Shown: positions 5,520 to 40,415, numbered from the stretch's first letter. The stretch: DNA of 64,000 nt from Clostridiales bacterium (GCA_017513085.1 JAFWDK010000010.1:64001-128000), one strand, 5' to 3'. Notes: a model not told the origin generated them from the sequence alone. Numbers and translations: made by a program.

Positions 5520-5575
5520 AACACTTACCGGCTCTTTCCTGGTGTGAAGAGTTTGTCGGAGATTGGGGTGAAGAT

Positions 5576-6103
5576 ATGGAATTGTGGGATCTTTATGACA
5601 GTGAAGAGAAAATGACCGGGGAGGTATTTGAGCGTACGCACAATAGCTCTTTGAATATTCCTAATGGACGGTACCATCTGGTTTGCGATATTTTGGTGAA
5701 ACATACGGATGGAACATATCTGCTCTGCAGGCGGGATTTAAATAAAGATTCGTACCCCGGTTTTTGGGAAGCCAGCGCCGGCGGAGCTGCCCAACTAGGC
5801 GAAGACCCGCTGGCCTGCGCTGAAAGAGAGCTTTTTGAGGAGACCGGACTTCATGCCGAAAGGTTTGAACTTCTGAATAAGAGTTTCAATGAAAGAAGTC
5901 ATAGTATAGTTTATAGCTATATAACTGAAGTTTCCTGCCCGAAGGATGCAATCGTGCTTCAAAAAGGGGAGACGATCGATTATAAGTGGGTGGATGCAAA
6001 AGGACTGATCGAGAACTCGGAATCAGATCTGGCTGTAAGCACCAAGGTGGCGCGCTATCAGGCTTTTTATGATCAGTTGCGTCAACAAATAGCCTATCAG
6101 TAA
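5576..6103 (+). CDS. NUDIX hydrolase
   Basis: Nudix box GGAAQLGEDPLACAERELFEETGL; MELWDLYD start. Confidence 0.9.
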   Translation: MELWDLYDSEEKMTGEVFERTHNSSLNIPNGRYHLVCDILVKHTDGTYLLCRRDLNKDSYPGFWEASAGGAAQLGEDPLACAERELFEETGLHAERFELLNKSFNERSHSIVYSYITEVSCPKDAIVLQKGETIDYKWVDAKGLIENSESDLAVSTKVARYQAFYDQLRQQIAYQ

Positions 6104-6128
6104 GTTCAAGAAGGTAGTAGGATCAGGA

Positions 6129-7592
6129 ATGAGACGTTTGTTTGAAATCGATCTTAAGGATTATGAAGGCTGTACTAAGGTTTTCCGGCGGCCTTCGGTC
6201 CGTGCGGTCATCTTTAGAGGAAATAGAATCGCCATGGTTTATGCTACCAATGAGAAATACTATAAGTTTCCCGGAGGCGGCATGCATGATGACGAAGATA
6301 AGAAGGAGACCCTTCTTCGTGAGGTGAAAGAAGAGGTCGGTCTGGACGTTATTCCGGAAAGTATAGAAGAATTCGGAAGCGTTCTTCGAAGACAAAGAAG
6401 TGACCGGGATCCGGATACGGTCTTCGAGCAGGAGAATTTCTATTTCACATGCCAGACTCAGGCATTACAGGGACAGCAACATCTTGATGATTATGAAGCA
6501 GAGGCCGGCTTCGAGCTTCGCTTGGTGGATATCGATGAAGCCATCCGGGTCAACAAAGAGTACCGGAGTGAGTGCTTTTTCAACGAGATCATGATCGATC
6601 GGGAAAGACGTGTGCTGGAAATGATCAAATCGGAACGGTACGATGTGGTAGCTCTGGGTGAATTACTGATCGATTTTACGGAGTCGGGAAAAAGTGCGGA
6701 TGGAATGAAGCTTTTTGAGCAGAATCCGGGCGGAGCGCCGGCCAATCTTCTGACTGTTGTGAGCCATTTCGGATATAAGACAGCATTTATTGGGAAAGTC
6801 GGCGAGGATATGCACGGTCGGTTTCTGATTGAAACGCTGGAAAAAGAGGGAATCGATACCCGATCGGTGATCAGGGATCCGGAACAGTTTACTACACTTG
6901 CTTTTGTCGGACTCGATAAAAACGGGGAGAGGACTTTCTCGTTTGCCAGAAAGCCTGGCGCGGATACGATGCTCCGAAACGAAGAACTCGATCGGAAACG
7001 AATTTCCAATTGTAAGGTGTTCCACTTCGGTTCTCTTTCATTGACCGATGAACCGGCCAGGAGCGCGACGTGGGAAGCGGTGAGGATCGCCAAAGGCTGT
7101 GGAGCAACGGTTTCTTATGATCCGAATTACCGTGCCTCTTTGTGGCCGGATGAAGAAACTGCGACCGAAGTGATGCGTTCGGCGGTCCCTCGTGCTGATG
7201 TGCTGAAAGTATCGGAGGAAGAGAGTACCCTTCTTACAGGTTGTGCGGATCTTGAGGCGGCGGCAGACCGCTTATTGGCTATGGGACCGAAATTTCTAGC
7301 CATCACTCTCGGAAGCGAGGGTGTCCTGATCGCAAGAAAAGACAGAAAAGAGCGCGTGGAAGCGTTCCGGGTAAAAAGTGTCGACACGACCGGAGCGGGG
7401 GATTCTTTCTGGGGCGGGTTCATAAGCCGGTGGCTGTCTAATGGTGCAGATATAGAAGAGATGAAATGGGGAGAACTGGTAAGATGTGCACGGACAGGTA
7501 ATGCGGTTGCCGCTTTGTGCGTACAGAAACGGGGCGGGATCCCTTCTGTTCCTTCCAAGGAAGAAGTGGAGAAACTACTGAGCGATACGTGA
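6129..7592 (+). CDS. NUDIX hydrolase fused to PfkB-family carbohydrate kinase (fructokinase-like)
   Basis: Nudix box FPGGG...LLREVKEEVGL in the first ~170 aa; then YDVVALGELLIDF, NPGGAPAN, DPNYR and DTTGAGDSF PfkB motifs. Confidence 0.88.
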   Translation: MRRLFEIDLKDYEGCTKVFRRPSVRAVIFRGNRIAMVYATNEKYYKFPGGGMHDDEDKKETLLREVKEEVGLDVIPESIEEFGSVLRRQRSDRDPDTVFEQENFYFTCQTQALQGQQHLDDYEAEAGFELRLVDIDEAIRVNKEYRSECFFNEIMIDRERRVLEMIKSERYDVVALGELLIDFTESGKSADGMKLFEQNPGGAPANLLTVVSHFGYKTAFIGKVGEDMHGRFLIETLEKEGIDTRSVIRDPEQFTTLAFVGLDKNGERTFSFARKPGADTMLRNEELDRKRISNCKVFHFGSLSLTDEPARSATWEAVRIAKGCGATVSYDPNYRASLWPDEETATEVMRSAVPRADVLKVSEEESTLLTGCADLEAAADRLLAMGPKFLAITLGSEGVLIARKDRKERVEAFRVKSVDTTGAGDSFWGGFISRWLSNGADIEEMKWGELVRCARTGNAVAALCVQKRGGIPSVPSKEEVEKLLSDT

Positions 7593-7642
7593 TTCTATTG
7601 CGAGGTATATACGGAAGAATGAAGAAAGGACGAGGAACAATT

Positions 7643-8422
7643 ATGAGACTGGCTGCATTTCAATTTGCCGTATGTGGCTGCCTGGCGCAGAACATTGAAG
7701 TGATCAAGAACGCTATAGAACAGGCTTCTAAGAATAATGTGGATCTGCTTGTGTTTCCTGAATGCGCATTGACGGGCTATCCTCCTCGCGATATGGAAAA
7801 GTCCGAAGATATAGATGTGAGTGCGGTCAAGGCCGCAATAGAAGATCTCCGGACTATGGCTGATGACTTGGGCATTCATGTTATTCTTGGTACGATCGAC
7901 CAAACGCAGACGGAATACTATAACCGCGCATATCTGCTTTCGCCTCATGAACCTATACGCTGGTATGATAAGCGGGCTCTGTATGGATGGGATGAAGATA
8001 ACTTTACAGCCGGAAGCGAAAAAGGCGTATATGAAATAGATGGAATCAAGATCGGAATAAGGATCTGCTTCGAAGTGCGTTTCCCGGAGTATTTCAGAGA
8101 ATTGTATGTGGATGACACAGATCTGGACATCGTGCTGTTTTATGATGTAGCGGACAACGAGGATGAGAACCGGTACCAGATGATCCGAGGGCATCTTATT
8201 ACACGAGCTGTCGAAAATGTCACGCCGGTATTATCTGTAAATACGATACATCCATACCAGACGGCACCGACCTGTTTCATGAATGCATCCGGAGCCGTTT
8301 GTCAGGAACTTCCCAAGAACAGCGAGGGGATGCTGATATACGATTTCGAGAAACAGGAATTAAACTTTGGTGAGCTCGGTCGTAAACGGTATTCCGATCT
8401 GTTATTGAACCGGAAGGCGTAA
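7643..8422 (+). CDS. Carbon-nitrogen hydrolase (nitrilase superfamily)
   Basis: FPE, YDKR and ICFEVRFPE triad motifs (E-K-C). Start at ATG 7643 after GAGG. Confidence 0.9.
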   Translation: MRLAAFQFAVCGCLAQNIEVIKNAIEQASKNNVDLLVFPECALTGYPPRDMEKSEDIDVSAVKAAIEDLRTMADDLGIHVILGTIDQTQTEYYNRAYLLSPHEPIRWYDKRALYGWDEDNFTAGSEKGVYEIDGIKIGIRICFEVRFPEYFRELYVDDTDLDIVLFYDVADNEDENRYQMIRGHLITRAVENVTPVLSVNTIHPYQTAPTCFMNASGAVCQELPKNSEGMLIYDFEKQELNFGELGRKRYSDLLLNRKA

Positions 8423-8433
8423 GGAGAGTCAAT

Positions 8434-9018
8434 ATGGAAAAGTTTTATTTCGAGGTGCCGGGCATCGGCAGGAAGCAGGATGCCATCGAGTTCATTCAGG
8501 AGTTTTATGCGCATCAGTCGGACATCAACGGAACCGGCGCGCTGGACAGTTATGTTGATGACTACGAGGGCTGGCTGGAGAAACTGGAGAGGGATTACGT
8601 GCAGGTGCCGAGCGAGGAGCGGGTGCCGGCTCGGACATACTTTCTGGTTCGTGAGTCAGACAAGCGCATCGTGGGCATGATCAACATCCGTCTGGCATTG
8701 AATGAGCGGCTTCGTAAGTACGGCGGCCACATCGGCTACTGCATCCGCCCGACGGAGCGCGGCAAGGGGTACAACAACATGAACCTCTACCTGGGCCTGA
8801 AGGTCTGTGCGGCGCACGGCATCGAAACGGTGTTTATGGATGCGGACCTTGATAATCCGGCGTCGTGGAAGACGATGGAGGCATTTGGCGGCGTACGCAT
8901 CCGCGAGTATTTCGACGATGTGGATGCGCACTGCATGGTGGTCGACTACAATATTGATGTTCGAAAAGCACTGGCCGGTCACCCGGAGTACGAGGATTTG
9001 ACCATATCTCAGGAATAA
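8434..9018 (+). CDS. GNAT-family N-acetyltransferase
   Basis: GGHIGYCIRPTERGKGY, NPASWKTME; AAGGAG RBS. Confidence 0.9.
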   Translation: MEKFYFEVPGIGRKQDAIEFIQEFYAHQSDINGTGALDSYVDDYEGWLEKLERDYVQVPSEERVPARTYFLVRESDKRIVGMINIRLALNERLRKYGGHIGYCIRPTERGKGYNNMNLYLGLKVCAAHGIETVFMDADLDNPASWKTMEAFGGVRIREYFDDVDAHCMVVDYNIDVRKALAGHPEYEDLTISQE

Positions 9019-9034
9019 GGCGAAGGAGTCTGCG

Positions 9035-10159
9035 ATGATAAAAGCACTGTTTGTCGATTTTTACGGGACGCTCGTTCATGAAGACGGGGAGATCATAAAG
9101 GAGATCACCAACATCATTCATGACACAGGAAACGGGGCGGCGCCTTCCGAGATCGATTCTTTCTGGTGGAAGGACTTTCAGAACATGTTCGTTTCTTCCT
9201 TTGGCGACAGCTTCGAGCTGCAGCGCGATATCGAGCGAAAAGCACTTGCCCACACGACCGGGAAATTCGAATCTGCGGCAGATGCTTCCGCCTTATGCGA
9301 CCGACTGTTTTCCCAGTGGAGCCGGCCGGAGATTTTTGAAGATACGAAAGAGTTTTTCGATAGATCCCCGCTCCCGATCTATATTGTTTCCAATATTGAT
9401 AACATTGATATCCGTAGTGCCATCGAGTATCACGGACTAAAGCCGGCCGGTGTTTTTACATCGGAAGATGCCAGGTCTTATAAACCGCGAAAAGAACTGT
9501 TCGAGCTGGCGCTTTCCAAGACCGGACTTGATCCGGAGGAAGTGATCCATATCGGAGATTCGGTAAGCAGCGATGTTAAAGGGGCGTCGGCACTGGGGAT
9601 CAGGACTTTGTGGCTGAACCGCTTCGGTAAGGAGGTCCCTTCCGGGGTGACCTCGATTTCCACTCTTCTGGAGGTATTTATGAATTTGGATATTACTATT
9701 CGAAAAGCAACGCTGGATGATCTTCCGGCGCTTCGGGATCTTTATCTGGCGCTGGAGGAAGACGGCGTCCGGTACCAGCCGGAACACTTTGTGATCGGAG
9801 AGAGAACAGACGAATTCTTCCAGTCGATCTTTGACAGTGATACCCAGGATATCCTGGTAGCAGATATCGGCGGCGAAGCAGTCGGATTTGTGCATGTGAT
9901 GATCCTTCAGCAGAAAAAAGTCTCCTGCCTGAAGCCGCAGAGCGTGGTCTATATGCAGGACCTTTGCGTCCGCGAGGATCTTCGTAGCAAAGGCATCGGC
10001 ACCATCTTAGTCAAAGAGGCGAAGAAGTACGGAAAAGAGAAAGGCGTGGATTTTATCCGCACGCAGGTATTCCCCGGAAATGTGGATGGCATGCGCTTTT
10101 ATGAGAGAAACGGCTTCTGCGAGATGATGAAGACCATCGAGTGCCAGTCGCTGGACTAA
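9035..10159 (+). CDS. HAD-family hydrolase fused to GNAT acetyltransferase
   Basis: HAD motifs DFYGTL, SN, KP, HIGDS..SD; then GNAT (VREDLRSKGIG, FYERNGF) from internal ATG 9680. Confidence 0.88.
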   Translation: MIKALFVDFYGTLVHEDGEIIKEITNIIHDTGNGAAPSEIDSFWWKDFQNMFVSSFGDSFELQRDIERKALAHTTGKFESAADASALCDRLFSQWSRPEIFEDTKEFFDRSPLPIYIVSNIDNIDIRSAIEYHGLKPAGVFTSEDARSYKPRKELFELALSKTGLDPEEVIHIGDSVSSDVKGASALGIRTLWLNRFGKEVPSGVTSISTLLEVFMNLDITIRKATLDDLPALRDLYLALEEDGVRYQPEHFVIGERTDEFFQSIFDSDTQDILVADIGGEAVGFVHVMILQQKKVSCLKPQSVVYMQDLCVREDLRSKGIGTILVKEAKKYGKEKGVDFIRTQVFPGNVDGMRFYERNGFCEMMKTIECQSLD

Positions 10160-10265
10160 ACGCTTAGCGGTGCTGGACCCCCTAGTAATCTTTACTAACT
10201 CCCTATCAAGACTGAACTCCCCCCCTTAGTGATTAAAGTTTGAATGTAATCAGCAAAATCTTTTG

Positions 10266-10295
10266 TTGACAAAAACTAATGATCGTTAGTATAAT
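10266..10295 (+). promoter_or_regulatory. Sigma-A promoter with overlapping TetR-type palindromic operator
   Basis: TTGACA-18bp-TATAAT; imperfect palindrome ACTAATGATCGTTAGT at 10275-10290, directly upstream of a TetR gene. Confidence 0.8.
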
Positions 10296-10331
10296 CTCTA
10301 ACGAATGAAAGCAAATGTGAGGTCGATGAGA

Positions 10332-10961
10332 ATGAGCAGAAAAGAAGAGATCATCTACGCGACGCTGGAACTTGCCTCTGCAAACGGCATGAAAGGTGTG
10401 TCTATGTCGCAGATCGCAGAGAAGGTGGGGATCAAGGCACCATCAATTTATAACCACTTCAAGTCGAAGGACGAGATCATCCAGGAGATGTACCGTTTTC
10501 TTCGCGAGCAGGCGCTGAAAAACAGCAGGACGGCTCCTCTGGATTATGCCGCGATGTTTGAGAAGAAGAGCCTTCAGGAGATCCTTATGGGTTCTCTTTC
10601 TGCTTATATGGGGATCGTGTCTGATAAAGATATGCTCCGGTTCTTCAAGGTCCTTTATTCCGAACGATCCACAAATCCGGTCGCCGCGAAGATCATGGTG
10701 GAAGAGACGGAACGGATGCTTTCCCAGTCCAGGGATCTATTCTACGCCTTGGCCGTGCACGGAAAAATCCGAAACGAGAATGTGGATATGGCCTCGATGA
10801 CATATTCGCTCACCATGCACTCACTGATCGATTACCGGATGGATCAGATCACATCCGGAGAAGAAAAAAGATTTGGCGACGGGAAAAGCACTGTCCCCAA
10901 GAATATCACGGAGTTTGTGAAATGGTTTAGCTTTCAGCTGGCAGTACCGGAAAAAAGATAA
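10332..10961 (+). CDS. TetR/AcrR-family transcriptional regulator
   Basis: HTH SMSQIAEKVGIKAPSIYNHFKSKDEI. Start could be 10305, 10326 or 10332. Confidence 0.92.
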   Translation: MSRKEEIIYATLELASANGMKGVSMSQIAEKVGIKAPSIYNHFKSKDEIIQEMYRFLREQALKNSRTAPLDYAAMFEKKSLQEILMGSLSAYMGIVSDKDMLRFFKVLYSERSTNPVAAKIMVEETERMLSQSRDLFYALAVHGKIRNENVDMASMTYSLTMHSLIDYRMDQITSGEEKRFGDGKSTVPKNITEFVKWFSFQLAVPEKR

Positions 10962-10981
10962 AAGAAAGAGATGAAAAACAC

Positions 10982-11668
10982 ATGCAAAATGAAATGACGA
11001 TGAATGTAGATACGAATGCAAAAAAGAAACTGATCAACTGGATCGGGCTCCTGGGTATAGTGGCATTTCTGTCCTATCTGGCGGCATTGATCTTTTCGCC
11101 ACTGGATTTCCCAGGTTATAACTGGATGGAACAGGCAGCCAGTGACCTGTCTGCGGATTCCGCGCCATCTCGGCATCTCTGGGAGCAGCTGTCTGCATTT
11201 TATGATGCCGGAAGTGTCGTATGTGCCACCTGTATCGCGATCTATGTGTCGGAGAAGAAGATCTCCACGAAACTGTTCCGCCTTGGCATTTACCTTTTTA
11301 CGATCATGAACTGGGTCTCGAAGGTGGGATACCAGATGTTTGCCCTTTCCGATTCGGGAAAGGATATTGCCGGATTTCAGGAAACGATGCATATGGTAGT
11401 CACAGCGATTGTTGTGGTTCTCTCTATCGTATCTTTGATCATGCTGATCGTATCGGGATGCCGGCATAAGGAAGTCCGAGGCCCCGGGATCTGGGCGGCG
11501 ATCGCACTTGCCATGATGTTCATGGGTCCCATCGGGATGGGTGCTTTTCCCGCTAAATACTTCGGCATATTCGAAAGATTCAGTACTGTTGCGGCAGTCG
11601 GATATAATGCCGTACTGGGTGTATATCTGTTTCAAGGTTTCCGAATCTCTCAGAAATCTGAAGATTAA
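10982..11668 (+). CDS. Multi-pass membrane protein, DUF998-like
   Basis: About six TM segments; PGYNWMEQAASDL and GIFERF motifs. Confidence 0.7.
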   Translation: MQNEMTMNVDTNAKKKLINWIGLLGIVAFLSYLAALIFSPLDFPGYNWMEQAASDLSADSAPSRHLWEQLSAFYDAGSVVCATCIAIYVSEKKISTKLFRLGIYLFTIMNWVSKVGYQMFALSDSGKDIAGFQETMHMVVTAIVVVLSIVSLIMLIVSGCRHKEVRGPGIWAAIALAMMFMGPIGMGAFPAKYFGIFERFSTVAAVGYNAVLGVYLFQGFRISQKSED

Positions 11669-11745
11669 CGGAGAGAACACGGATCCTTTTATACTACGAA
11701 GCTGTTTCTCGAAAATGAGATGAGATGATATACTCAACTTAGTTC

Positions 11746-11776
11746 GGATGGAGAACTGTCCGGACTAAGTTTTTTA
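11746..11776 (+). terminator. Rho-independent terminator
   Basis: aacttagttcgga...tccggactaagtt stem followed by a T-run. Confidence 0.7.
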
Positions 11777-11814
11777 TTTCGACATATCGTTTGGCATTCG
11801 CAAGGGGAACGTAG

Positions 11815-12456
11815 ATGGATAAACACTTATTTTTTGAAAACGCCTACTTCGTGATCGGTACTTCCTATGCCGGGAAGTCCACGATGGTAAAAGAACTTGC
11901 AAAGAAACATAACGGGATCGCCTGTGAGGAGAACTATCACGATAACTATCCGGAGAAACTGGATAAAGAAGAGTTTCCTTGTCTGACGTATACGCGTGAT
12001 CTGGTGGACTGGCATGATTTTATCCGCCGTTCTCCGCAGGAATATAAGGACTGGATCGACGGCGCCAAGAGAGAAAGCGGAATACTCGAACTTCGAATGC
12101 TGCCGGAGATCTGCAGTAAAGGAAAGCCTGTGTTTGTGGATACGAATATCAGCCTGGATGACCTTCGTGTGATCACACCGAAGAACCATGTCGTCGTCCT
12201 TCTTTCGGATCCGCAGATCTCGATCCACCGCTTCTTCGACCGTCCGGACCCGGAGAAGCAGTTCTTGTATAAGCTGATGCTGGAAGAGCCGGATCCGGAG
12301 GCGGCACTGGCCAATTATCGAAAAGGCCTGGAACTGATCTGTTCACAGGAAGCCTATGATACACTTCTGAACTCCGGATTTGCCGTTATTCATCGTGATG
12401 AGAACAGAACGATCGAACAGACCGCCGCGCTCATAGACGAGATTTTCGGGTTATAA
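11815..12456 (+). CDS. P-loop kinase-like protein
   Basis: N-terminal Walker A GTSYAGKST. Confidence 0.75.
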   Translation: MDKHLFFENAYFVIGTSYAGKSTMVKELAKKHNGIACEENYHDNYPEKLDKEEFPCLTYTRDLVDWHDFIRRSPQEYKDWIDGAKRESGILELRMLPEICSKGKPVFVDTNISLDDLRVITPKNHVVVLLSDPQISIHRFFDRPDPEKQFLYKLMLEEPDPEAALANYRKGLELICSQEAYDTLLNSGFAVIHRDENRTIEQTAALIDEIFGL

Positions 12457-12483
12457 TGTGATCATTACATAGGAAGGAAGATC

Positions 12484-13437
12484 ATGATGAAGTCGGATTT
12501 CTTTTCAGGATTAGCGGAGAATAATAGAGAGCTGCTTCTGAAGGTCCCGATGAGTGATATTCATAATCACTCTACGAAGGGATGCAGACGCAGCTGGCTG
12601 GCGGAACAATTAAATATGGTTCTGCCGGAGCCTCCTGAAAAGTTCGATGGCCTTTCCGGTATGCAGGAATGGTTCACGAGAGAGATCAAGCCATACTGCA
12701 CCGGCAAAGAAGGCATCATACTCCGGTGGGAAGGTGCTTTTGCCGAGGCGAAAAGAAACAACATCGTACGGCTTGCGATGAACTTCGGCGTGACGGAGAT
12801 CGATCTGGTCGGCGGAATGGAGCCGTTTCGGAAAATGATCGACGGATTTCATCAGAAGCATTGTCCGGACACGGTATTCGAGCCGGAGATCACCTATATC
12901 TTGCTATGTAATGTGGAAGCAGAGACCGAAAGGATGGATCAGTTCGTTTCAGACGGATACTTCCGATCCATCGATGTCTGCGGCGGAGAAAACCTGCGGC
13001 CAATCGAAGATTTCCTGCCGCTCTATCGGAAAGCGGAGCAATATCATCTGGTCAAGAAGATGCATGTCGGAGAAAGCGGGCCGGCGGAAGATATCCGTAA
13101 AGCCGTGGAAATCCTGGGCCTGGATGAGGTCCACCACGGGATCCGCGCGGCCGATTCGAAAGACGTGATGCGCTTCCTAGCCGAGAACAAGATTCAGCTG
13201 AATGTGTGCCCGAGCAGTAACGTGATGCTGGGATATGCACGTAGTTTCAAAGACCATCCAATCAAGGTGCTCTTCGAAAGCGGGGTCAAGGTGACGATCA
13301 ACACAGACGATCTACTGATCTTTGACAGCTCGATCGAAAACGAATACCTGCTTTTATACCGCGCGTGTGTACTTAGTGCAGAACAATTAAATGAGATACG
13401 ATTGCTGGGCAACAGACCACGATCGAGAAGTATCTGA
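12484..13437 (+). CDS. Adenosine deaminase family metallohydrolase
   Basis: DIHNH, MHVGE, HHG, VCPSSN, INTDD motifs. Confidence 0.88.
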   Translation: MMKSDFFSGLAENNRELLLKVPMSDIHNHSTKGCRRSWLAEQLNMVLPEPPEKFDGLSGMQEWFTREIKPYCTGKEGIILRWEGAFAEAKRNNIVRLAMNFGVTEIDLVGGMEPFRKMIDGFHQKHCPDTVFEPEITYILLCNVEAETERMDQFVSDGYFRSIDVCGGENLRPIEDFLPLYRKAEQYHLVKKMHVGESGPAEDIRKAVEILGLDEVHHGIRAADSKDVMRFLAENKIQLNVCPSSNVMLGYARSFKDHPIKVLFESGVKVTINTDDLLIFDSSIENEYLLLYRACVLSAEQLNEIRLLGNRPRSRSI

Positions 13438-32113: not shown

Positions 32114-32171
32114 GGCCGCAGAAGGATATACGATAGTATAAAATCATATTAGAACTAAAAAGGAGAGCAAT

Positions 32172-32705: not shown

Positions 32706-32716
32706 AGGAGAAACAA

Positions 32717-33223
32717 ATGAACTATATCAATAAGGGAAAACGGGATGTAATCATCATACCAACGTTTAGTAATGTGCAAATTCTGGAAACGATCAGAAAA
32801 AAGTACGATGAACTTTACGGTATTGTGCCACCACATATTACCCTTGCTTTCCCATTCGATAGTGATATCTCAAATGATGATTTAGAACGTAAATTGTCCG
32901 AAATTGCAAGTGATTTCAAACCGTTCAAAATAAGATTGAAAGGAATTTCTTTTGGTTTTGATACCCGAGTGAATACATATTACATTTTCCTGGATTTTAT
33001 TCAAGGAGAAGAGATAATTACTGCGATTCACAAAAGGATTTATTGTGATATTCTTCATAAAGAGCTGCCTTTTGAGTATAAACCCCATATTACATTAGGA
33101 TGCACAAAGGAAAAGATCGATCTTAGCTTAGATGAAGAATTTGAAACTACAGTTGATCAGTTATCTGTTGAGTTAATTGGTGAAAATGAAGAATCAAACA
33201 TAATCATCCGGATTAGCTTATAA
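32717..33223 (+). CDS. 2H phosphoesterase / 2'-5' RNA ligase family protein
   Basis: Two HxT motifs (PPHITL, KPHITL); AAGGAG RBS. Confidence 0.88.
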   Translation: MNYINKGKRDVIIIPTFSNVQILETIRKKYDELYGIVPPHITLAFPFDSDISNDDLERKLSEIASDFKPFKIRLKGISFGFDTRVNTYYIFLDFIQGEEIITAIHKRIYCDILHKELPFEYKPHITLGCTKEKIDLSLDEEFETTVDQLSVELIGENEESNIIIRISL

Positions 33224-33265
33224 TGTAGTGGAGCAAAGAAATAAATACTCAGGACAGGGATCTAT

Positions 33266-34039
33266 ATGGAAGACTCTATAATCACAAAGAACAAACAGTA
33301 TTGGGATGAACACGCTGATCTTTGGTTTGGAACGACGGCTCTGCCCCGATACGGAGTTAAGTTTGTCACGGAGGATGATCTGCATTTCTTCTCGGATGTG
33401 GCCGGCAAGAAGGCTCTTGAAATATGCTGCGGAAGCGGACATTCACTAAAATACCTTTGGAATAAAGGCGCCGGCGAGCTCTGGGGGCTTGATCTGTCAC
33501 AAAAGCAGCTGGACAATGCCAGGCAGTTCTTAAACGGGAGTGGCTGTGATCCAAAGCTTATTTGTGCACCTATGGAGGAAGATTCAGGCATTCCCCGAGA
33601 TTATTTTGACTACGTATATTCCATCTATGGTATCGGCTGGACGACTGACCTTGCCGGCACATTTAAGAAGATTGCCTCGTATCTGAAAAAGGACGGCATC
33701 TTCATATTCAGCTGGGGACATCCGCTTCATTATTGCGTGGCAAAATCATATGCAACCGGCGAAGATGAAGTGCAGGATGGAGAACTCGTATTCTCAAGGA
33801 GTTATTTCGATGAGTCATATTTTGATATGCCGGTTCACGACACCACTGTGACATTTGCGAACAGGAAGATATCTACTTATGTCAATGCATTGTATGAAGC
33901 CGGTTTTATCATCGAGAAGATGGTCGAGCAAACTGATGAACAGACACTGGCTGACAGTAAGGACAACAGCCCGAAAGCGCAGAAAGCGAGGATGATCCCT
34001 CTATCAATGTGCTTTAAGTGCAGAAAAATAGGCGGATAA
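33266..34039 (+). CDS. Class I SAM-dependent methyltransferase
   Basis: ALEICCGSGHS, GLDLS, FDYVYSIY. Confidence 0.9.
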   Translation: MEDSIITKNKQYWDEHADLWFGTTALPRYGVKFVTEDDLHFFSDVAGKKALEICCGSGHSLKYLWNKGAGELWGLDLSQKQLDNARQFLNGSGCDPKLICAPMEEDSGIPRDYFDYVYSIYGIGWTTDLAGTFKKIASYLKKDGIFIFSWGHPLHYCVAKSYATGEDEVQDGELVFSRSYFDESYFDMPVHDTTVTFANRKISTYVNALYEAGFIIEKMVEQTDEQTLADSKDNSPKAQKARMIPLSMCFKCRKIGG

Positions 34040-34066
34040 TCATCCATTTTAAATCTGGAGAAAAAC

Positions 34067-34633
34067 ATGAACGCGAGAGAATACCTTGAAATATTACATG
34101 TAGCTGAAAGACTCAAAGATACGCCCAGACACTGTACGACCACCAACGGAAGAACGGAGAGTGTGGCGGAACACAGCTGGAGAGTATCACTCATGGCTTC
34201 ACTCCTGAGACACGAATTCCCTGATCTTGATATGGATAAGGTCGTTAGTATGTGTCTTATTCACGATCTCGGAGAATGTTTTACCGGTGACATACCTGCT
34301 TTTGTTAAGACGGATGCTGACAGAAAAACAGAAGATACATTATTAGAACAATGGGTGAAGTCGCTTACGGAAGAGATATCCTCCGATCTCTCTGCTCTAT
34401 ACAAGGAAATGGATGCGCAGAAGACGGCGGAAGCGAAATTGTATAAGGCCTTAGACAAACTTGAAGCCTTGATCCAGCATAATGAGTCTCCTTTGAGCAC
34501 ATGGGCGGAGAACGAGTACGAGCTGAATAAGACGTATGCTTTCGAAACGGTCTCATTCTCGAAATGGCTTACAGCACTTCGAGAAGAGATCCTTAAGGAT
34601 ACGATTGAAAAAATCGAAAAGGAGAGTGAATAA
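34067..34633 (+). CDS. HD-domain phosphohydrolase
   Basis: ESVAEHSWR, IHDLGE, DKLE. Confidence 0.9.
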   Translation: MNAREYLEILHVAERLKDTPRHCTTTNGRTESVAEHSWRVSLMASLLRHEFPDLDMDKVVSMCLIHDLGECFTGDIPAFVKTDADRKTEDTLLEQWVKSLTEEISSDLSALYKEMDAQKTAEAKLYKALDKLEALIQHNESPLSTWAENEYELNKTYAFETVSFSKWLTALREEILKDTIEKIEKESE

Positions 34634-35146
34634 ATGGAAAACATTGTTTTTAGAGAAGCAACAATGGATGATGCAGAGGAAATGATTTCCTATCTGAACA
34701 TCGTCGGGAGAGAATCCGGAAATCTCATGCATGGGGCAGACGGTTTTAAAGCACCGGTCGAAGCGGTGAAACGGCGCATCCAGGCTTCCCATGACGCAGA
34801 TAACAGCATAATTCTGATTGCCCTTTCGGATGGGAAGATCATAGGCCGGGCTGAACTGGCCGGCTATCCGGCGGCAAAATTGCATCATAATGCCACGTTT
34901 TCCATTTCTGTCCGAAAAGACTACTGGAATATGAAAATCGGCACAAGGCTGATGACAGAAATCATTGAATGTGCGAAAAAGATGAATCTTCGGAATATTG
35001 ATCTGGAAGTAGTAGTTGATAATAAGGCAGCCATTGCGCTTTACCATAAAATGGGATTTACCGATATAGGAGTATACAAGAACTACTGGTATGCGAATAA
35101 TACCTATAGCGATGCCATTGTCATGCAGAAATGTTTGAACGACTAA
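34634..35146 (+). CDS. GNAT-family N-acetyltransferase
   Basis: SVRKDYWNMKIG, NKAAIALYHKMGF. Confidence 0.9.
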   Translation: MENIVFREATMDDAEEMISYLNIVGRESGNLMHGADGFKAPVEAVKRRIQASHDADNSIILIALSDGKIIGRAELAGYPAAKLHHNATFSISVRKDYWNMKIGTRLMTEIIECAKKMNLRNIDLEVVVDNKAAIALYHKMGFTDIGVYKNYWYANNTYSDAIVMQKCLND

Positions 35147-35170
35147 TATAGAAGCGATTGAGGATCCTTT

Positions 35171-36529
35171 TTGATGGATATTGAAGGAAGAAAAGAATTC
35201 AAAAAGCAGCTTATGAGTCTGTCAGTGCCTTTGGCGCTACAGAATCTTCTTACGGCTCTTGTCGGCGCATCGGATGCACTTATGCTAGGACGTCTGACGC
35301 AGGATGCGATCGCAGCCGTATCGCTTGCCAATCAGATTGCTTTTGTTATGTCTTTATTCTATAGCGTTGCTATTGTTGCAGCGAGTGTTCTGATATCCCA
35401 ATATTGGGGCAAGAAGGACTATCTTAATGCAAAAAGATTTCTGGGAATGGCAATTCGATATGCCCTGGGCATCGGAATCATCTTCACGGTAGGTGCTTAT
35501 ATCTTTGCAGAACAACTTATAGGGATATTGACTAATGAGCAGGAGCTAATCCGGATCGGAGCGGATTACCTGAGGATTGTGTGCTTCTCTTATGTTTTTA
35601 CCTCTGTATTGCGGTGTTTTCTGATGATTATGAAGATTTCCGGGCATGTGAAGTTGAGCGTCTGGATCTCTGTTGTTACCGTAACAGTGGACATGGCAGC
35701 CGATTTCTTCCTGATCTATGGATTTGGAAAGATCCCTGCTTTGGGTGCAAACGGCTCTGCTTATTCAACGATCGTTGTGGAAATGATTGCTCTGATCTGG
35801 TGTGTTATTTGGGCGCAGAGAAATGAGAATATACGTCTTGGAAAAGATTCCCTGCTTTGTTTTTCCAGGACATATGAGCGAAAACTTTGGAAGATCATCC
35901 CCGGAATGATGTTGTCCTCACTGGCTTGGGGATTCAGCATCCCAATGCACTCGTTTTTTCTGGGACATCTCGGGACAGATGCCACGGCAGCAGCCGCTGT
36001 AGTCACAGTCGCTCAGCAACTGATACAGGGACTTACTCATGGCTTCTCTACCGGTATCAGTATCATGATCGGGAAACTCCTTGGACAGAATAAATTGGAT
36101 AAGGCGAAAGAATATGGTGCTCTTAGTTGGAAAGTGTCATTGATTTCAGGAATGATAAATGTATTGCTGATTTGCATTGTTGGACCGCTTGTTTATGTAT
36201 TCTATGTACTTGAAGCCCTGGCCAAGCAATATCTCATACAAATGCTTATTTTCCTGGCTTTCTATATGGTGGCGTATGCATACAATACCATTATTACCTG
36301 TGGAGTCTTTCCAGCGGGAGGAGATTCGATTTATGACGGGATAAGTGTTTTGATTGCCACCTGGTGCTTTGCGATTCCACTGGCTCTTATCGCCTGCTTT
36401 GTATTACATCTTCCGGTCATAGTCGTTTATGTAATCATGTGCCTGGATGAGATAGTGAAGGTGCCTTTTATCAGGTGGAGATATAATAAATATATATGGC
36501 TAAAGAATCTTACAAAAGAGACTGCTTAA
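35171..36529 (+). CDS. MATE-family efflux transporter
   Basis: About 12 TM helices; DALMLGRL, ISQYWG, LGANGSAYST. Confidence 0.9.
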   Translation: MMDIEGRKEFKKQLMSLSVPLALQNLLTALVGASDALMLGRLTQDAIAAVSLANQIAFVMSLFYSVAIVAASVLISQYWGKKDYLNAKRFLGMAIRYALGIGIIFTVGAYIFAEQLIGILTNEQELIRIGADYLRIVCFSYVFTSVLRCFLMIMKISGHVKLSVWISVVTVTVDMAADFFLIYGFGKIPALGANGSAYSTIVVEMIALIWCVIWAQRNENIRLGKDSLLCFSRTYERKLWKIIPGMMLSSLAWGFSIPMHSFFLGHLGTDATAAAAVVTVAQQLIQGLTHGFSTGISIMIGKLLGQNKLDKAKEYGALSWKVSLISGMINVLLICIVGPLVYVFYVLEALAKQYLIQMLIFLAFYMVAYAYNTIITCGVFPAGGDSIYDGISVLIATWCFAIPLALIACFVLHLPVIVVYVIMCLDEIVKVPFIRWRYNKYIWLKNLTKETA

Positions 36530-36576
36530 GGAAAAACAGACATGATCAGAACATAAGAATTTAAAGAGGTAATGAT

Positions 36577-37164
36577 ATGAAAGTGTTAATTGTATATTGC
36601 CATCCTTCAAAAGATAGTTTTACGAATGAGGTATATAAATCTTTTGAACGAGGATTAAGAGATGCAGGTCATGAGATTTTAATATCCGATTTGTATGATA
36701 TGGATTTTAAAACGGACATGAGTGAAGAAGAATATTTACGAGAAACCTATTACAAAGCGGATGGAATAAAATCAAAAGATGTCTTGATCGAACAGGAAAA
36801 AATACAGAACAGTGATGCAATTGTGTTTATATATCCTGTATTTTGGACGGAAGCACCTGCGAAGCTTGTGGGTTGGTTTGACCGGGTTTGGACAACAGGA
36901 TTTGCTTATAGACCAGATCCTGCGATGAAGGTTCTTGAAAAAGCATTATTTATTGTTTGCGCAGGAAAAACCATGCAATCTCTCATTGAAACAGGGGAGA
37001 AGAGTGCTATGGAAACAGTAATGTTGGGAGATAGAATTCGTAATAGGGCAAAAGAGAAAGAAATGGTAATTTTTGATAATATATCGCATTGGAATGAAGA
37101 AGCACGAAATGAGAATATGCCACGACATCTTTCCAAGGCATATGATATGGGTGTAAATTTCTAG
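36577..37164 (+). CDS. NAD(P)H dehydrogenase (quinone), flavodoxin-like fold
   Basis: YCHPSKDSF, DLY, YPVFWTEAPAKLVGWFDRV. Confidence 0.9.
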   Translation: MKVLIVYCHPSKDSFTNEVYKSFERGLRDAGHEILISDLYDMDFKTDMSEEEYLRETYYKADGIKSKDVLIEQEKIQNSDAIVFIYPVFWTEAPAKLVGWFDRVWTTGFAYRPDPAMKVLEKALFIVCAGKTMQSLIETGEKSAMETVMLGDRIRNRAKEKEMVIFDNISHWNEEARNENMPRHLSKAYDMGVNF

Positions 37165-37193
37165 AACGTAAGAACGGAGTTGAAGAGAAGTCT

Positions 37194-37715
37194 ATGATCA
37201 TACTTATAACAGGTGCATCACATACCGGAAAAACTGTTTTGGCGCAGAGATTGCTTGAAAAATATAAATACCCGTATCTTTCCATAGATCATTTGAAAAT
37301 GGGACTTATTCGCAGTGGAAACACTGATCTTACGCCTGATGACGATGCCGAGCTTACGGAATATTTGTGGCCGATCGTCAGAGAAATCATCAAGACAGCC
37401 ATAGAGAATGAGCAGAACCTTATTGTTGAGGGATGTTATGTTCCTTTTGATTGGAGAAACAGTTTTGATGAGCAGTATCTTCTGTCGATAAGATTCATCT
37501 GTCTTGCTATGTCAGATGAATATATGATTTCGCATTTTGGAGATATAAAAGCGCATGGCTCAGACATTGAAAACAGGCTCGATGATTCTGATTGTACAGT
37601 TGAACAAGTGATGAAAGACAACCGCCAGATCATTGCCGGTTACAAATCCAGTGGCGAAAAGATTACTTTGATTACAGACAACTATGAGGATTCGATAAGA
37701 GGCATATTGAATTAA
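37194..37715 (+). CDS. P-loop kinase (2-phosphoglycerate/adenylate kinase-like)
   Basis: GASHTGKT, SIDHLKMGLIRSG, IVEG. Confidence 0.8.
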   Translation: MIILITGASHTGKTVLAQRLLEKYKYPYLSIDHLKMGLIRSGNTDLTPDDDAELTEYLWPIVREIIKTAIENEQNLIVEGCYVPFDWRNSFDEQYLLSIRFICLAMSDEYMISHFGDIKAHGSDIENRLDDSDCTVEQVMKDNRQIIAGYKSSGEKITLITDNYEDSIRGILN

Positions 37716-37728
37716 CAAATTCAAGTTT
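37715..37728 (+). repeat. 14-bp intergenic direct repeat ACAAATTCAAGTTT, copy 1
   Basis: Overlaps the TAA of the kinase gene; exact copy at 39549-39562. Confidence 0.75.
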
Positions 37729-37767
37729 GTCATGAGGTTGCATTTTGCGGATTTGTGAAAGGTTTTT

Positions 37768-38307
37768 ATGGATATTAGAATTGAACCTATATTGATTGAA
37801 CAAAAATCTGTATTCATTCAGATGATGGAGTTATACAATTATGATTTTTCAGAGTTTTCCGATGATGATATAAATGAATATGGATACTTTGGTTATTCGC
37901 GTATTGATGATTATTGGAATGAGGAAGGAAGATATCCTTACTTTATTAGAGTTGACGGGAAACTTGCAGGATTAGTCTTGGTCAGGTCCTGCAGTGAACA
38001 TAATGATTTATCCAATCCTCACAATATAGCTGAATTCTTCGTGATGAAAAAATACCGGCACAAAGGAGTTGGGAAGATGGTTGCTATGAAGATTTTCGAT
38101 ATGTTTCCCGGTGGATGGGAAATATCACAATGGCAAAATAACCTGCCTGCTCAAACCTTCTGGAAGATAGTCATTAACGAATATACTAATGGTAAGTTTG
38201 ATACATTTACTGCAATAGAGAAAGGCGAGGTTGGTTTTACATTTGATAATTCACTTAGCCGTGGTGATGAGGGAAAAGATGAAATACCAATACAAAGAAA
38301 TGCCTGA
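37768..38307 (+). CDS. GNAT-family N-acetyltransferase
   Basis: IAEFFVMKKYRHKGVG, NLPAQTFW. Confidence 0.88.
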   Translation: MDIRIEPILIEQKSVFIQMMELYNYDFSEFSDDDINEYGYFGYSRIDDYWNEEGRYPYFIRVDGKLAGLVLVRSCSEHNDLSNPHNIAEFFVMKKYRHKGVGKMVAMKIFDMFPGGWEISQWQNNLPAQTFWKIVINEYTNGKFDTFTAIEKGEVGFTFDNSLSRGDEGKDEIPIQRNA

Positions 38308-38346
38308 ATCTATGATGGTCTGTTTTTGAGTTTGGATTATGAATGA

Positions 38347-38420
38347 TTTCTCCCAATTATATTGAAAAATCTCCCAAAAGGATGTATGATTTGGGAGAAA
38401 AGTATGTTGGTTGGGAGAAA
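38347..38420 (+). promoter_or_regulatory. Promoter with four TCTCCCAA half-sites upstream of the Fic gene
   Basis: TTTCTCCCAA 38347, AATCTCCCAA 38368, TTGGGAGAAA 38391 and 38411; TTGAAA(38362)-17bp-TATGAT(38385). Confidence 0.75.
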
Positions 38421-38433
38421 GGATAGTTGCCGG

Positions 38434-39513
38434 ATGAGACAGTTTGATTATTCTAAATTGGCTGATAGAACTTGGGATAATGAAATAGTATCTTATATTT
38501 CAAAGATTCACGAGTACAAAGGAAAACAGGAATTGTTCCTTCGTCAGAAGCCGGTTGAACTTACACGTCTTATCGAGGTGGCTAAAGCTCAAAGTACTGA
38601 GGCTTCAAACCGTATCGAAGGAATAGTAACCACCAGCTCAAGACTAAAACAGTTAATGAACGATAAAACGACACCTAAGAATAGAGATGAGGAAGAAATC
38701 CTTGGGTATCGAAACGTACTTAATCTGGTGCATGATAATTACGATGCAATCCCTGTAAGACGAAATTATATCCTTCAGATGCATAAGGAATTACTAAAGT
38801 ATACGAATTTCTCTTACGGCGGTCAGTTTAAGACAACTCCCAATGAAATCGATATGGTTACGGAGGCCGGTGAGAAGATCGTGCTATTCAGACCTTTAGC
38901 ACCATATGAGACTCCCGATGCTATTGATCAAATTTGTGAGCAGTATCAGAAAGAGTTGGATAGAGGTGTGGTTGATGAGTTAATACTAATTCCATGCTTC
39001 CTTCTCGATTTCCTGTGTATTCACCCATTTAATGATGGAAACGGAAGAATGAGTCGACTAATTACTCTGCTTCTTCTAAATAGATGTGGATACCTGGTTG
39101 GACAATACATAAGTATCGAGAAAGCAATTGCTGATACTAAGGAAGCCTATTATGATTCGTTGCAGAGAGCTGATCAAAATTGGCATGAAGGACAAAACGA
39201 TCCCAAACCGTTTATCAAATACATGCTGGGTGTAATCCTCGCATGCTATCGCGAGTTTGAGCGAAGAGTCACTATTGCTCACCCTGAAGGAACTAGAAGT
39301 ACTTCGTACGACATAGTTAAGGCTTGTGTTACAGAACGAATCGGAAAGTTTACTAAATTGGAAGTGCTGACATTATGTCCGAGTTTGGGGAGCTCTTCCG
39401 TAGAATCTGCCTTGAAAAAACTGGTTGATGAAGGATATCTTGTTCGTATTGGATCTGGGCGAAAGACGCAATATGTAAAAGCTGATGCTATCAAACATAA
39501 GCGGAAGCTGTAA
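38434..39513 (+). CDS. Fic-family protein with probable C-terminal winged helix
   Basis: Canonical Fic motif HPFNDGNGRMSR, N-terminal SNRIEG inhibitory-type motif, C-terminal VESALKKLVDEGYLVRIGSGRKTQY. Confidence 0.92.
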   Translation: MRQFDYSKLADRTWDNEIVSYISKIHEYKGKQELFLRQKPVELTRLIEVAKAQSTEASNRIEGIVTTSSRLKQLMNDKTTPKNRDEEEILGYRNVLNLVHDNYDAIPVRRNYILQMHKELLKYTNFSYGGQFKTTPNEIDMVTEAGEKIVLFRPLAPYETPDAIDQICEQYQKELDRGVVDELILIPCFLLDFLCIHPFNDGNGRMSRLITLLLLNRCGYLVGQYISIEKAIADTKEAYYDSLQRADQNWHEGQNDPKPFIKYMLGVILACYREFERRVTIAHPEGTRSTSYDIVKACVTERIGKFTKLEVLTLCPSLGSSSVESALKKLVDEGYLVRIGSGRKTQYVKADAIKHKRKL

Positions 39514-39548
39514 GGCGCGTTCGATGGAATATGAGGGTATCCTGTGAC

Positions 39549-39562
39549 ACAAATTCAAGTTT
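39549..39562 (+). repeat. 14-bp intergenic direct repeat ACAAATTCAAGTTT, copy 2
   Basis: Exact copy of 37715-37728, again just after a stop codon (TGA 39545-39547). Confidence 0.75.
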
Positions 39563-39592
39563 ATAGGGTTGATGCCATAGTCGAGAAGAAAA

Positions 39593-39697
39593 GATACCGC
39601 AGACCACAGTGGATCCGAGTTCTTTGAAATGAACTGCAAAGAAACGTCGCGGATAGCAAAGGATTTTACGGTGGAGGTTATCAGAAGCGAGCAATAA
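39593..39697 (+). pseudogene. C-terminal remnant resembling MTA/SAH nucleosidase
   Basis: Frame DTADHSGSEFFEMNCKETSRIAKDFTVEVIRSEQ* resembles the D-x-A-D...F-E terminal helix of MtnN-family proteins; no start codon. Confidence 0.55.
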
Positions 39698-39710
39698 AAG
39701 GAGTTGGCAA

Positions 39711-40310
39711 ATGAGCCAGATTGTTGAAAAAATGCGGCAGGAGATAATCGATCGAAGTGCCCGATTTGAAGAACTGACAAAAGGTACGAAGGATGAGTAC
39801 AACATATATCGGGAGCATATCCAGTATGTTTATAAGTATGTTGTAATGCTCTCAAAGGACAAGAATGTCGATGGGGAAGTGTTGGAATTAGCTGCCCTTT
39901 TACATGATATTTCCATGACCGATATGTCACTGGACCGAAGCCGGCACAATGAATACGGTGCGGGAATTGCGGAACAGTTGTTACGGGAGAGTAATTACCC
40001 GGAAGACAAAACGCAGCTTGTCAAAAGATGTATTCTGAATCACAGTAAAGGAAGACAGCAATACCGGAGCACGGAGGAAGAGCAGATCCTTGTCGATGCT
40101 GACGGATTATCTCATTTTGATGTTGTTAAGACGCTTTATTCCTTGCCAAGTAAAGTCATGGGATTAAACGAAGAGGACTCGGTGCGGTTTGTGCAGGATA
40201 AACTGACCGGAGACTATAATGAATTAAGTGATGATCTCAAATACTTGGTAAAAGAAAAATATGACAGAATAATGGCCTCCAAATGCGAAGATGATATAAA
40301 AGCACTGTGA
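39711..40310 (+). CDS. HD-domain metal-dependent phosphohydrolase
   Basis: EHIQ...AALLHDI...RH...NHS...DADGL; AAGGAG RBS. Confidence 0.88.
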   Translation: MSQIVEKMRQEIIDRSARFEELTKGTKDEYNIYREHIQYVYKYVVMLSKDKNVDGEVLELAALLHDISMTDMSLDRSRHNEYGAGIAEQLLRESNYPEDKTQLVKRCILNHSKGRQQYRSTEEEQILVDADGLSHFDVVKTLYSLPSKVMGLNEEDSVRFVQDKLTGDYNELSDDLKYLVKEKYDRIMASKCEDDIKAL

Positions 40311-40415
40311 TATTCGGTGTGAAGGAAAGTTATCTCTTGAATTTATCGTTCCAAACATTAGTTGACTATCTGGTGTAAGTGTGCGAAAATGCCTGAAAAC
40401 AACGAGGTGTTTAGT

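Follow-up and report, generated by a model that had tools for sequence, protein, structure and literature searches.

How does a long run of small genes with unrelated functions come to lie on one strand of a clostridial chromosome, and does such a run work as an integron? The question is raised by a gene array within a 64,000-nt stretch of DNA (the window, G000:C5:64001-128000, with positions counted from its first letter) from a metagenome-assembled genome (MAG) of a rumen Clostridiales bacterium. The genome comprises 3.06 Mb in 36 contigs with a completeness of 99.4%, and the array lies inside a 388-kb contig (C5). It holds 44 open reading frames (ORFs) at 5576..40310, 41 on the plus strand and 3 on the minus strand, between genes for a YlmH-like protein and a low-molecular-weight protein-tyrosine phosphatase (LMW-PTP) (Table 1). 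This agrees with the count in an earlier note on this DNA, which had described the block as a candidate integron-like cassette system. The array has the integron-type trait of co-oriented, mostly promoterless single genes of unrelated function; it is organised like an integron and gives no sign of working like one. With a probability of about 0.65, we consider the block to be a chromosomal hotspot of horizontal gene transfer (HGT), or 'additive' flexible genomic island, that is free of mobile-element genes and fixed between conserved flanks. Its changing stock consists of small enzymes of families that act on small molecules and nucleotides, joined by a few regulators and exporters.

Array genes are more alike between species than the core genome

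A search with the first half of the array covered 18 species of the same genus. Matches were found in 18/18 congeners, and segments with at least 88% identity in at least 8 of the 18, among the matches listed. Homologous contigs were compared for five congeners (G002, G004, G005, G007 and G016). The array genes common to G002, G005, G007 and G016 mostly showed 88-99% DNA identity (in G002, 24/28 matched array genes reached at least 88% and some 99%), whereas three core control regions were 67-86% identical and largely colinear. Two of these controls were randomly chosen 20-kb regions on other contigs, with a single contig per congener; the third lies downstream of the array, and its UvrA, ClpB, ArgJ and ParE/ParC genes were 73-78% identical. 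One contig, G007:C58, physically links an array at 95-99% to its own core genes at 75-77%, with the MATE-citrate synthase flank at 75%. The change is abrupt and falls inside the LMW-PTP gene, which is 93-100% identical to G007 up to ~40475 and ~50% from ~40555 onwards and is chimeric. Past the junction, the MATE and citrate synthase genes on the same contig vary between 67 and 84%.

The contrast between array and core indicates that array DNA moved between species recently and repeatedly, and vertical descent combined with differential loss cannot explain it. It is accordingly very improbable that the block is a vertically inherited cluster of housekeeping operons, altered by loss only and co-oriented through leading-strand bias. 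Such a cluster would agree with the modest strand bias (P = 0.012 to 0.097, see below), with the gene order, which is colinear with that in G002, G005, G007 and G016, with deletion scars, which speak for frequent loss, and with the array of the more distant congener G004, which at 70-83% is near its core values. It would not agree with identities that change stepwise from gene to gene within blocks, nor with one half of a fusion gene that has close relatives outside the genus. Conserved order and content with congruent divergence, which the earlier note had named as evidence against accretion, was found in the three control regions and not in the array. As judged from sequence identity, these comparisons show recent exchange of stretches of one to several genes among the species of the genus. 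The idea of a gene-accretion and turnover locus put forward in the note is thus borne out by whole-gene differences, an identity far above that of the core, and one gene with relatives beyond the genus.

This gene, the HAD-GNAT fusion at 9035-10159, was the one array gene compared beyond the genus, by its GNAT half. The GNAT half (residues 216-374) showed 75-86% protein identity to stand-alone genes in records titled rumen Lachnospiraceae/Butyrivibrio and Treponema/Spirochaetaceae/Treponemataceae, and the HAD half (residues 1-215) was 54-67% identical to other stand-alone genes. Exchange of the GNAT half apparently reaches other families and another phylum.

A homologue of the GNAT half with 68% amino-acid identity was also present on a 2.2-kb contig (L071) in a Methanobrevibacter MAG record; because the contig is so short, a binning error is more likely than a transfer to archaea. 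Treponema integrons as a source of array genes were considered and dropped after rumen Treponema loci with the GNAT homologue (L060 and L064) had been inspected for integron-like repeats; L065 had no array. The locus L064 from an uncultured rumen Treponema contains, at 9079-17561, a 43-nt repeat family with five copies, some of them inverted, that flanks the GNAT homologue and small neighbours, and this repeat looks like a regulatory/operator or promoter-type motif rather than attC.

Array content differs by whole genes

The arrays in G005, G007 and G016 adjoin the same thioesterase gene and/or the same MATE-citrate synthase flank as this array, and the array in G002 follows its YlmH homologue on a 204-kb contig. 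In G002 the YlmH-like gene shows 84% identity; no such gene was found at the corresponding place in G005, G007 and G016. The arrays of these four congeners are colinear with the present one and differ from it by whole-gene insertions, deletions and replacements. On the contigs compared for G002, matches were found for 28/44 array genes. They form 10 colinear blocks, and from one block to the next the two genomes differ by 1-11 whole genes. The genes found only in G002 and G005 belong to like families and encode APH, esterase, aldo-keto reductase, flavodoxin, glyoxalase, ADP-ribosylglycohydrolase and methyltransferase proteins, together with TetR, AraC and PadR regulators; a single WapI-like immunity family was found among the selected array ORFs scanned with Pfam, in G005. 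Genome-specific genes of the present array lie at 5576, 7517, 10305-10982, 21502, 30301-32693 and 37768.

The ends of the homology blocks were compared with the positions of gene boundaries. Unique block ends fell within 15 nt of a boundary in 26/37 cases compared with 6.7% expected (P about 1e-22). This count covered blocks of at least 200 nt and at least 85% identity within 5550-40900 in the congeners other than G004, leaving aside ends at contig ends, and nine gene starts had first been shifted to downstream candidate starts, most of them with a Shine-Dalgarno-like motif. Aligning the interval across relatives, which the earlier note had proposed as a check, hence gave whole-gene indels and replacements with most block ends at gene boundaries.

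Single events could be followed in public rumen and gut metagenomes, in which 20 run rows from 13 studies contained part of the stretch. A contig from run X16 jumps exactly from 21505 to 22130 and so is devoid of the body of a P-loop kinase gene, and G002 and G016 have ~60-90 nt of unrelated spacer at this site. The start codon of the kinase gene overlaps the TGA of the upstream GNAT gene. Another X16 contig has 478 other letters in place of 30189-34062, and the five-gene segment at this position is replaced by two other genes in G002, which also has a 758-nt insertion within a ~16-nt spacer after the AAC(3) gene. Uncovered parts of the stretch in X6, X9 and X16 are no evidence of absence. A module of a TetR and a DUF998 gene is missing from G002 at the matching position, and copies at 75-82% are found elsewhere in G001, G002, G003, G007 and G017.

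An artefact of assembly or binning, in which array contigs of one species were joined to or binned with the genome of another, would be compatible with the fact that all genomes are metagenome-assembled and that arrays often break into small contigs. We regard it as exceedingly unlikely, given that the array lies inside a 388-kb contig and that of G002 on one of 204 kb, and that G007:C58 carries an array together with its own core. In addition, run X2, whose study differs from that of the possible source, gave near-identical contigs over 21001-41000, one of which extends 1,937 nt beyond 41000, and this provides independent support for the assembly.

Identity steps and remnants within genes

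Not all junctions lie between genes. Compared with both G002 and G007, an identity step is found at ~34850, inside the GNAT gene 34634-35146. The methyltransferase gene at 22138 shares its ribosome-binding site and first ~45 nt with an otherwise unrelated gene in G002. G005 still has pieces of three genes that are intact here (genes 12484, 20549 and 21017, with 198, 78 and 159 nt, respectively) and a patchwork of remnants at 18432-18712, and G007 retains the last 108 nt of the GNAT gene 37768. These steps, remnants and the chimeric LMW-PTP gene are marks of homologous recombination tracts and imprecise deletion and not of a site-specific enzyme. When 12 spacers were translated and compared by tblastn with all compared DNA, one gene scar (31960-32171) was supported and the other matches were conserved intergenic DNA of congeners. 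Thus, of the at least five gene scars listed earlier, one stands and no other was found in this genome, and more are present in the arrays of congeners. The neighbour fusions described in the same place were confirmed for the NUDIX-PfkB and HAD-GNAT genes. By these sequence comparisons, content turnover is shown to proceed by whole-gene insertion, deletion and replacement, with imprecise events as the probable source of scars, chimeric genes and neighbour fusions.

Integron machinery and mobile-element genes were not found

In integrons, each cassette is followed by an attC site, made up of imperfect inverted repeats with RYYYAAC...GTTRRRY cores and ~57-140 nt long; a cluster of attC sites without an integrase is termed a CALIN. 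In a genome-wide search for the integron integrase (NCBIfam TIGR02249), the highest score was 49 bits, where the cut-off is 265, and it was at the same level as in 14 control genomes, without integrons. The genome encodes four tyrosine recombinases (PF00589), none inside the window; the nearest is ~183 kb away at C5:288 kb, where a gene for an XerC/D-like tyrosine recombinase of 337 aa lies at C5:288257-288991. A core-pair pattern search for attC-like sites in 5550-41000 gave 0 pairs, compared with 6.1 +/- 3.0 in 50 shuffles. Moreover, 38/46 spacers are at most 56 nt long and are therefore too short to hold attC. A repeat search in the array revealed only chance-level short pairs and no family of repeated sites, and alignment by eye of all stop- and start-codon contexts gave no common motif. 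Pfam searches found no recombinase/integrase, transposase, relaxase, conjugation, replication or phage families in the 44 array ORFs, and the same gene classes were absent from selected ORFs of the arrays in G002, G005, G007, G016 and G004. Polar insertion at one end was not seen, as genome-specific genes lie at at least six sites, and no attI or Pc could be defined.

Of the repeated intergenic motif proposed earlier, what remained was one 13-nt word, CAAATTCAAGTTT, which occurs twice (0.11 copies expected; two reached in 1/100 shuffles) and does not belong to a family of repeated sites. The two copies, at 37716 and 39550, flank a GNAT gene (37768-38307) and a Fic gene (38362-39513). Without IntI, attC, repeats or a recombinase, the locus lacks what defines integrons and CALINs, and the array is not an integron. 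The absence of an integrase, a transposase and attC sites had already been remarked on in the note and held in genome-wide, Pfam and core-pair searches. The site-specific, integron-like mechanism that it nevertheless proposed is not supported, since there is no IntI, attC or junction motif, new genes are scattered and junctions lie inside ORFs. An intact ComEC homologue in the genome is weak and uninformative evidence, because 10/14 control genomes also carry one.

The same searches bear on another reading, in which an integrated mobile element (an integrative and conjugative element, a plasmid or a prophage) moves as a unit and the array is its cargo region or what is left of it after decay. 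The high identity between species would suit such an element, and so would the toxin-antitoxin genes, AbiEii and IS200/IS605 element in a second array described below and extra sequencing depth at 36342-38342 in two runs, which suggests other carriers. Yet none of the corresponding gene families was found in this array or in the selected ORFs of the five others, locus and flanks are the same in several species, and identity varies by block instead of being uniform. Megablast searches, which cover near-identical DNA only, gave no match for 5550-41000 among 72,556 plasmid records and none among 50,697 phage records for 5550-30500, the part searched there. We consider movement as a unit very unlikely.

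A second array and similar loci in other Clostridia

The genome contains a second, larger array at G000:C10 ~55000-146000 (loci L027-L031), mostly on the minus strand and with 16 GNAT matches. It includes NUDIX-APH, GNAT-nitroreductase and peptidase-methyltransferase fusions, a CPT-like kinase, beta-lactamase-fold proteins, and MerR, TetR and AraC regulators, one regulator having an 'integron-associated effector binding' Cass2 domain. YafQ/RelB, AbiEii and one IS200/IS605 element (TnpA and TnpB, C10:113062-114575) are present as well. Identity between congeners is 78-93% in this array, and its modules are ORF-exact, again with ATGA junctions. The order of modules differs among species: two adjacent swaps were each seen in two or three independent genomes, and in the G002 homologue five modules are nearly reversed in order (B E G F D C H compared with B C D ... 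E F G H). Orientation was kept in 36/36 matched blocks. The reordering could arise by repeated tandem duplication and loss or by independent insertions.

Among loci of at least 14 kb around homologues in other Clostridia, 16/47 had at least 90% of their ORFs co-oriented. They include loci in cultured Lachnospiraceae and in Faecalicatena, and three that were scanned with Pfam contained GNAT, NUDIX, APH, GrpB, methyltransferase and DJ-1 families. Similar arrays around homologues in many Clostridia indicate that the architecture is general and accessible in culture.

These observations bear on a true cassette system, in which site-specific or ORF-precise machinery, encoded elsewhere or of an unrecognised kind, moves single promoterless genes. 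Whole-gene modules with block ends near gene boundaries, the clean presence or absence of the single kinase gene, ATGA start/stop overlaps at three module junctions, the like architecture in other Clostridia and the gene families all favour it; integron cassettes typically carry GNAT, NUDIX, methyltransferase and toxin-antitoxin families, which match those of the array. The strongest remaining support for a cassette-type mechanism is the reordering without inversion on C10. Against it stand the low integrase score, the small number and distance of tyrosine recombinases, the missing attC pairs and short spacers, the lack of a common junction motif, the lack of a recombinase in selected ORFs of five homologous arrays, the junctions and identity steps inside ORFs, and the scattered, non-polar position of new genes. 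On balance such machinery is unlikely. In its wider form, also doubtful, a cassette system without integrase or attC would be widespread in Clostridia, and single ORFs from start to stop would be captured, reordered and exchanged in one orientation; the agent could be, for example, a recombinase elsewhere in the genome or a process tied to transcription or translation signals such as ATGA overlaps. If true, these integrase-free arrays would be a Gram-positive functional counterpart of sedentary chromosomal integrons.

Gene content and the genome background

A Pfam family (E <= 1e-3) was assigned to 43/44 array ORFs, the exception being 20137-20520. Unrelated functions with repeated families had been reported, and the family counts were identical: GNAT (PF00583) 8, NUDIX 3, class-I S-adenosylmethionine methyltransferase 3, P-loop kinase-like (AAA_18/AAA_33) 3, HD 2 and APH 2. 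Single copies encode AAC(3), a hexapeptide acetyltransferase, a nitrilase-type C-N hydrolase and adenosine-deaminase-like, esterase and PNPOx-like proteins. Flavodoxin-like proteins and one each of GrpB, LigT-like phosphoesterase, PNP/UDP phosphorylase, TIR and Fic are further members, with TetR and MerR as regulators and a MATE and a three-gene ABC system as exporters. The ABC operon (24438-27007) contains the sole minus-strand genes of the array.

The spacers from ylmH to the MATE gene (n = 46) are, as had been noted, mostly short, with 13 of at most 0 nt, 18 of 1-30 nt, 7 of 31-56 nt and 8 above that; the median is 22.5 nt. A Shine-Dalgarno-like tetramer precedes the candidate start of 34/42 plus-strand ORFs (41 in the array and LMW-PTP), a raw count with no chance baseline that is in line with the claim of a ribosome-binding site for each gene. 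One consensus promoter stands out in the array, before the TetR gene, and the hairpin at 11736-11771 is the sole strong terminator-like hairpin on the plus strand; other plus-strand matches have stems of 5-7 pairs and lie at 16019-16033 and mostly within ORFs. In a scan of the whole array, promoter-like and terminator-like counts were otherwise at chance level, so most of the array looks like long read-through units. Contigs from run X16, which is labelled as a metatranscriptome, cover 27203-30188 and 34063-37730 in a variant strain; these are no proof of transcription, since DNA may be present in the sample.

The plus strand is the leading strand across C5:1-320 kb according to the GC skew, and 79.4% of 233 crude ORFs outside the array in this region are on the plus strand. 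Against this background, the strand bias gave P = 0.012 for 41/44 and P = 0.097 for 38/43 by a crude ORF caller. The array strand bias is therefore only modestly above the leading-strand background and is weak evidence alone, which limits the weight that the earlier note had placed on it. Array genes are short (median 218 aa compared with 320 genome-wide; 0.6% of 44-gene windows are as short). The gene-by-gene shifts in base composition that had been described are partly supported: the GC content at third codon positions (GC3) ranges from 0.29 to 0.73 with a raised spread (sd 0.096 compared with 0.078), but this is not extreme, as 8.5% of windows are equally variable. Of 46 PF00583 matches in the genome, 24 are concentrated at two sites: this array has 8 and C10:61-138 kb has 16. 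At ~320 kb of C5 the GC skew changes sign and the genes switch strand; this resembles a replication terminus and would place the array in the terminus-proximal part of the replichore.

How the array may be built

We propose that exchange would occur by ordinary RecA-type homologous recombination with the array genes themselves as anchors, as they are 88-99% identical and the core is too diverged for homologous recombination. New genes may be taken up at short microhomologies, through illegitimate recombination or its homology-facilitated form, after which a deletion bias would trim spacers and create fusions and scars. A single orientation would be kept by selection in favour of transcriptional read-through and coupled translation on the leading strand. 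The benefit, to go by Pfam family names, may be a variable set of detoxifying, antibiotic-modifying, exporting and nucleotide house-cleaning activities in the rumen, with plant compounds among the possible substrates. The array would then be a recombination-permissive zone common to several rumen species, in which their own similar genes and not the flanks give the homology.

Several points weigh against this proposal. At 75-78%, the flanks show that crossovers in flanking core genes are not the route between these species, so the anchors would have to be within the array. For a process that uses no site, the modularity by whole genes is very sharp, with insertions in a ~16-nt spacer or exactly at a stop codon. 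The modules on C10 are ORF-exact, and their reordering with orientation kept is not produced by simple homologous recombination. Thus, sharp modularity and inversion-free reordering are not fully explained by known recombination. Furthermore, all compared genomes are metagenome-assembled, with several arrays split over small contigs, and Pfam family names are the basis of the functions assigned to array genes.

Relation to known systems

Among systems outside Clostridia, the additive islands of Alteromonas often lie beside tRNA genes and carry integrases or integrons, unlike the present array, in which no integrase or integron was found; defence clusters of the recombinase-associated acquired interbacterial defence (rAID) type have an associated recombinase and repeats. 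HGT hotspots without mobile genetic elements were described by Oliveira, Touchon and Rocha 2017 (PMC5635113). Like these, the array has a fixed spot between conserved genes, accessory genes with rapid turnover, and no mobile-element genes. Raised homologous recombination at or near the borders, a further trait of those hotspots, may be present here too: one clear junction lies in the border gene LMW-PTP, and identity steps lie within array genes. Unlike the model in that paper, of within-species crossovers in flanking core genes, the flanks here are 75-78% and the array 88-99% identical, and the anchors would be array genes. The array also differs from those hotspots in its near-uniform small enzymes, one orientation, short median spacer and at least two arrays per genome. 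It resembles the additive flexible genomic islands of Alteromonas (PMC4898812) in its conserved position and in small gene cassettes that are added or lost between strains.

With sedentary chromosomal integrons and CALINs (PMC8618304), the array shares long runs of co-oriented, mostly promoterless, unrelated small genes whose content varies between relatives. In contrast, it has no IntI and no attC, its spacers are short, insertion is not polar and junctions lie inside ORFs. Orphan immunity-gene arrays occur in the acquired interbacterial defence clusters of Bacteroidales (bioRxiv 10.1101/471110), and the type VI secretion (T6SS) immunity arrays in Vibrio cholerae were built through sequential displacement (PMC5361080). 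Like them, the array is made up of co-oriented, putatively protective small genes, which would accumulate through successive recombination and are distributed over species of a gut community. Those arrays hold immunity to T6SS effector-linked toxins, whereas here we find enzymes, no recombinase and no repeats.

The known category of hotspot or additive flexible island fits the phenomenon. What is unusual is the combination of modules that are exact to the gene, spacers of nearly zero length, a single orientation, several arrays in a genome, identity between species far above that of the core and inversion-free reordering. No published account of such arrays in Clostridia was found, within an incomplete coverage of the literature. 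If our reading is true, gut and rumen Clostridia keep part of an accessory 'chemical defence' repertoire (acetyltransferases, kinases, hydrolases and exporters, of types known to act on antibiotics and other small molecules) in compact, operon-like arrays, whose DNA is similar enough to recombine between species despite 67-86% identity elsewhere. Resistance-like and detoxifying genes would then spread without plasmids, phages, transposons or integrons, and screens for mobile elements would miss them.

Features of the locus and further observations

The coordinates of the features are collected in Table 1.

Table 1. Features in and around the array, in window coordinates
Feature	Position	Strand	Basis or remark
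Acyl-ACP thioesterase gene, conserved left flank	3900..4655	+	Pfam Acyl-ACP_TE; 76-79% identical in G005, G007 and G016, adjoining their arrays
YlmH-like RNA-binding protein gene, array head	4770..5519	+	Pfam YlmH_RBD
NUDIX-PfkB kinase fusion gene	6129..7592	+	Pfam; core-like divergence, 77-78%
HAD-GNAT fusion gene	9035..10159	+	Pfam; each half is a gene of its own in other taxa
TetR regulator and DUF998 membrane protein, two-gene module	10160..11677	+	Own consensus promoter 10266-10295
Intrinsic-terminator-like hairpin, strong	11736..11771	+	16 pairs and T run
P-loop kinase gene body, single-gene insertion	21506..22129	+	ORF 21502-22119, GC3 0.33
MerR regulator (+) and convergent three-gene ABC exporter operon (-)	23869..27007	both	Pfam; 88-95% identical in G002, G005, G007 and G016
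Replaceable five-gene segment: GNAT, PNP_UDP phosphorylase, GrpB, LigT-like 2H phosphoesterase, methyltransferase	30192..34063	+	
Gene scar	31960..32171	+	46-aa ORF fragment; 50-54% identity with a section of a protein encoded at G000:C14:235527-235640 and in L104
13-nt word CAAATTCAAGTTT, copy 1	37716..37728	+	Homology blocks with G002 and G007 end here
13-nt word CAAATTCAAGTTT, copy 2	39550..39562	+	
LMW protein-tyrosine phosphatase gene, internal recombination junction	40362..40877	+	
MATE transporter and citrate synthase genes, conserved right flank	41040..43829	+	Core-like divergence, 75-78% across congeners

At 36342-38342, which holds flavodoxin-like, kinase and GNAT genes, the summed contig depth was raised two- to eight-fold in runs X2 and X9, and many variant contigs and loose ends were found at 37525, 38270-38315 and 39502. 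More abundant other organisms or strains in these samples appear to carry the genes in other contexts. The adjoining Fic gene encodes 383 aa and is 99% identical in G007, and other strains and samples have different flanks around it. A ACGGAGAATT-type motif is common to the loose ends at 38315 and 39502. The Fic gene seems to form a mobile module by itself.

Inside the array, 27204-28334 encodes a TIR-domain protein of 376 aa whose tail is zinc-ribbon-like. The arrays of congeners contain longer TPR-TIR-DUF6273 proteins beside an SPFH/Band-7 protein and an ORF of unknown function (L010:17356-19368, L014:16398-18398 and L024:3672-6029), and both kinds of locus may be an anti-phage or NAD-targeting module among enzymes. 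Past the citrate synthase gene, at 43969-48255, three large ORFs (558, 348 and 449 aa) are without a credible Pfam family, and the local GC skew is negative. Within this region, ~47369-47650 has many short matches (60-280 nt, 65-88%), spread over different contigs in all five congeners, which suggests a repeated domain or a repeat element.

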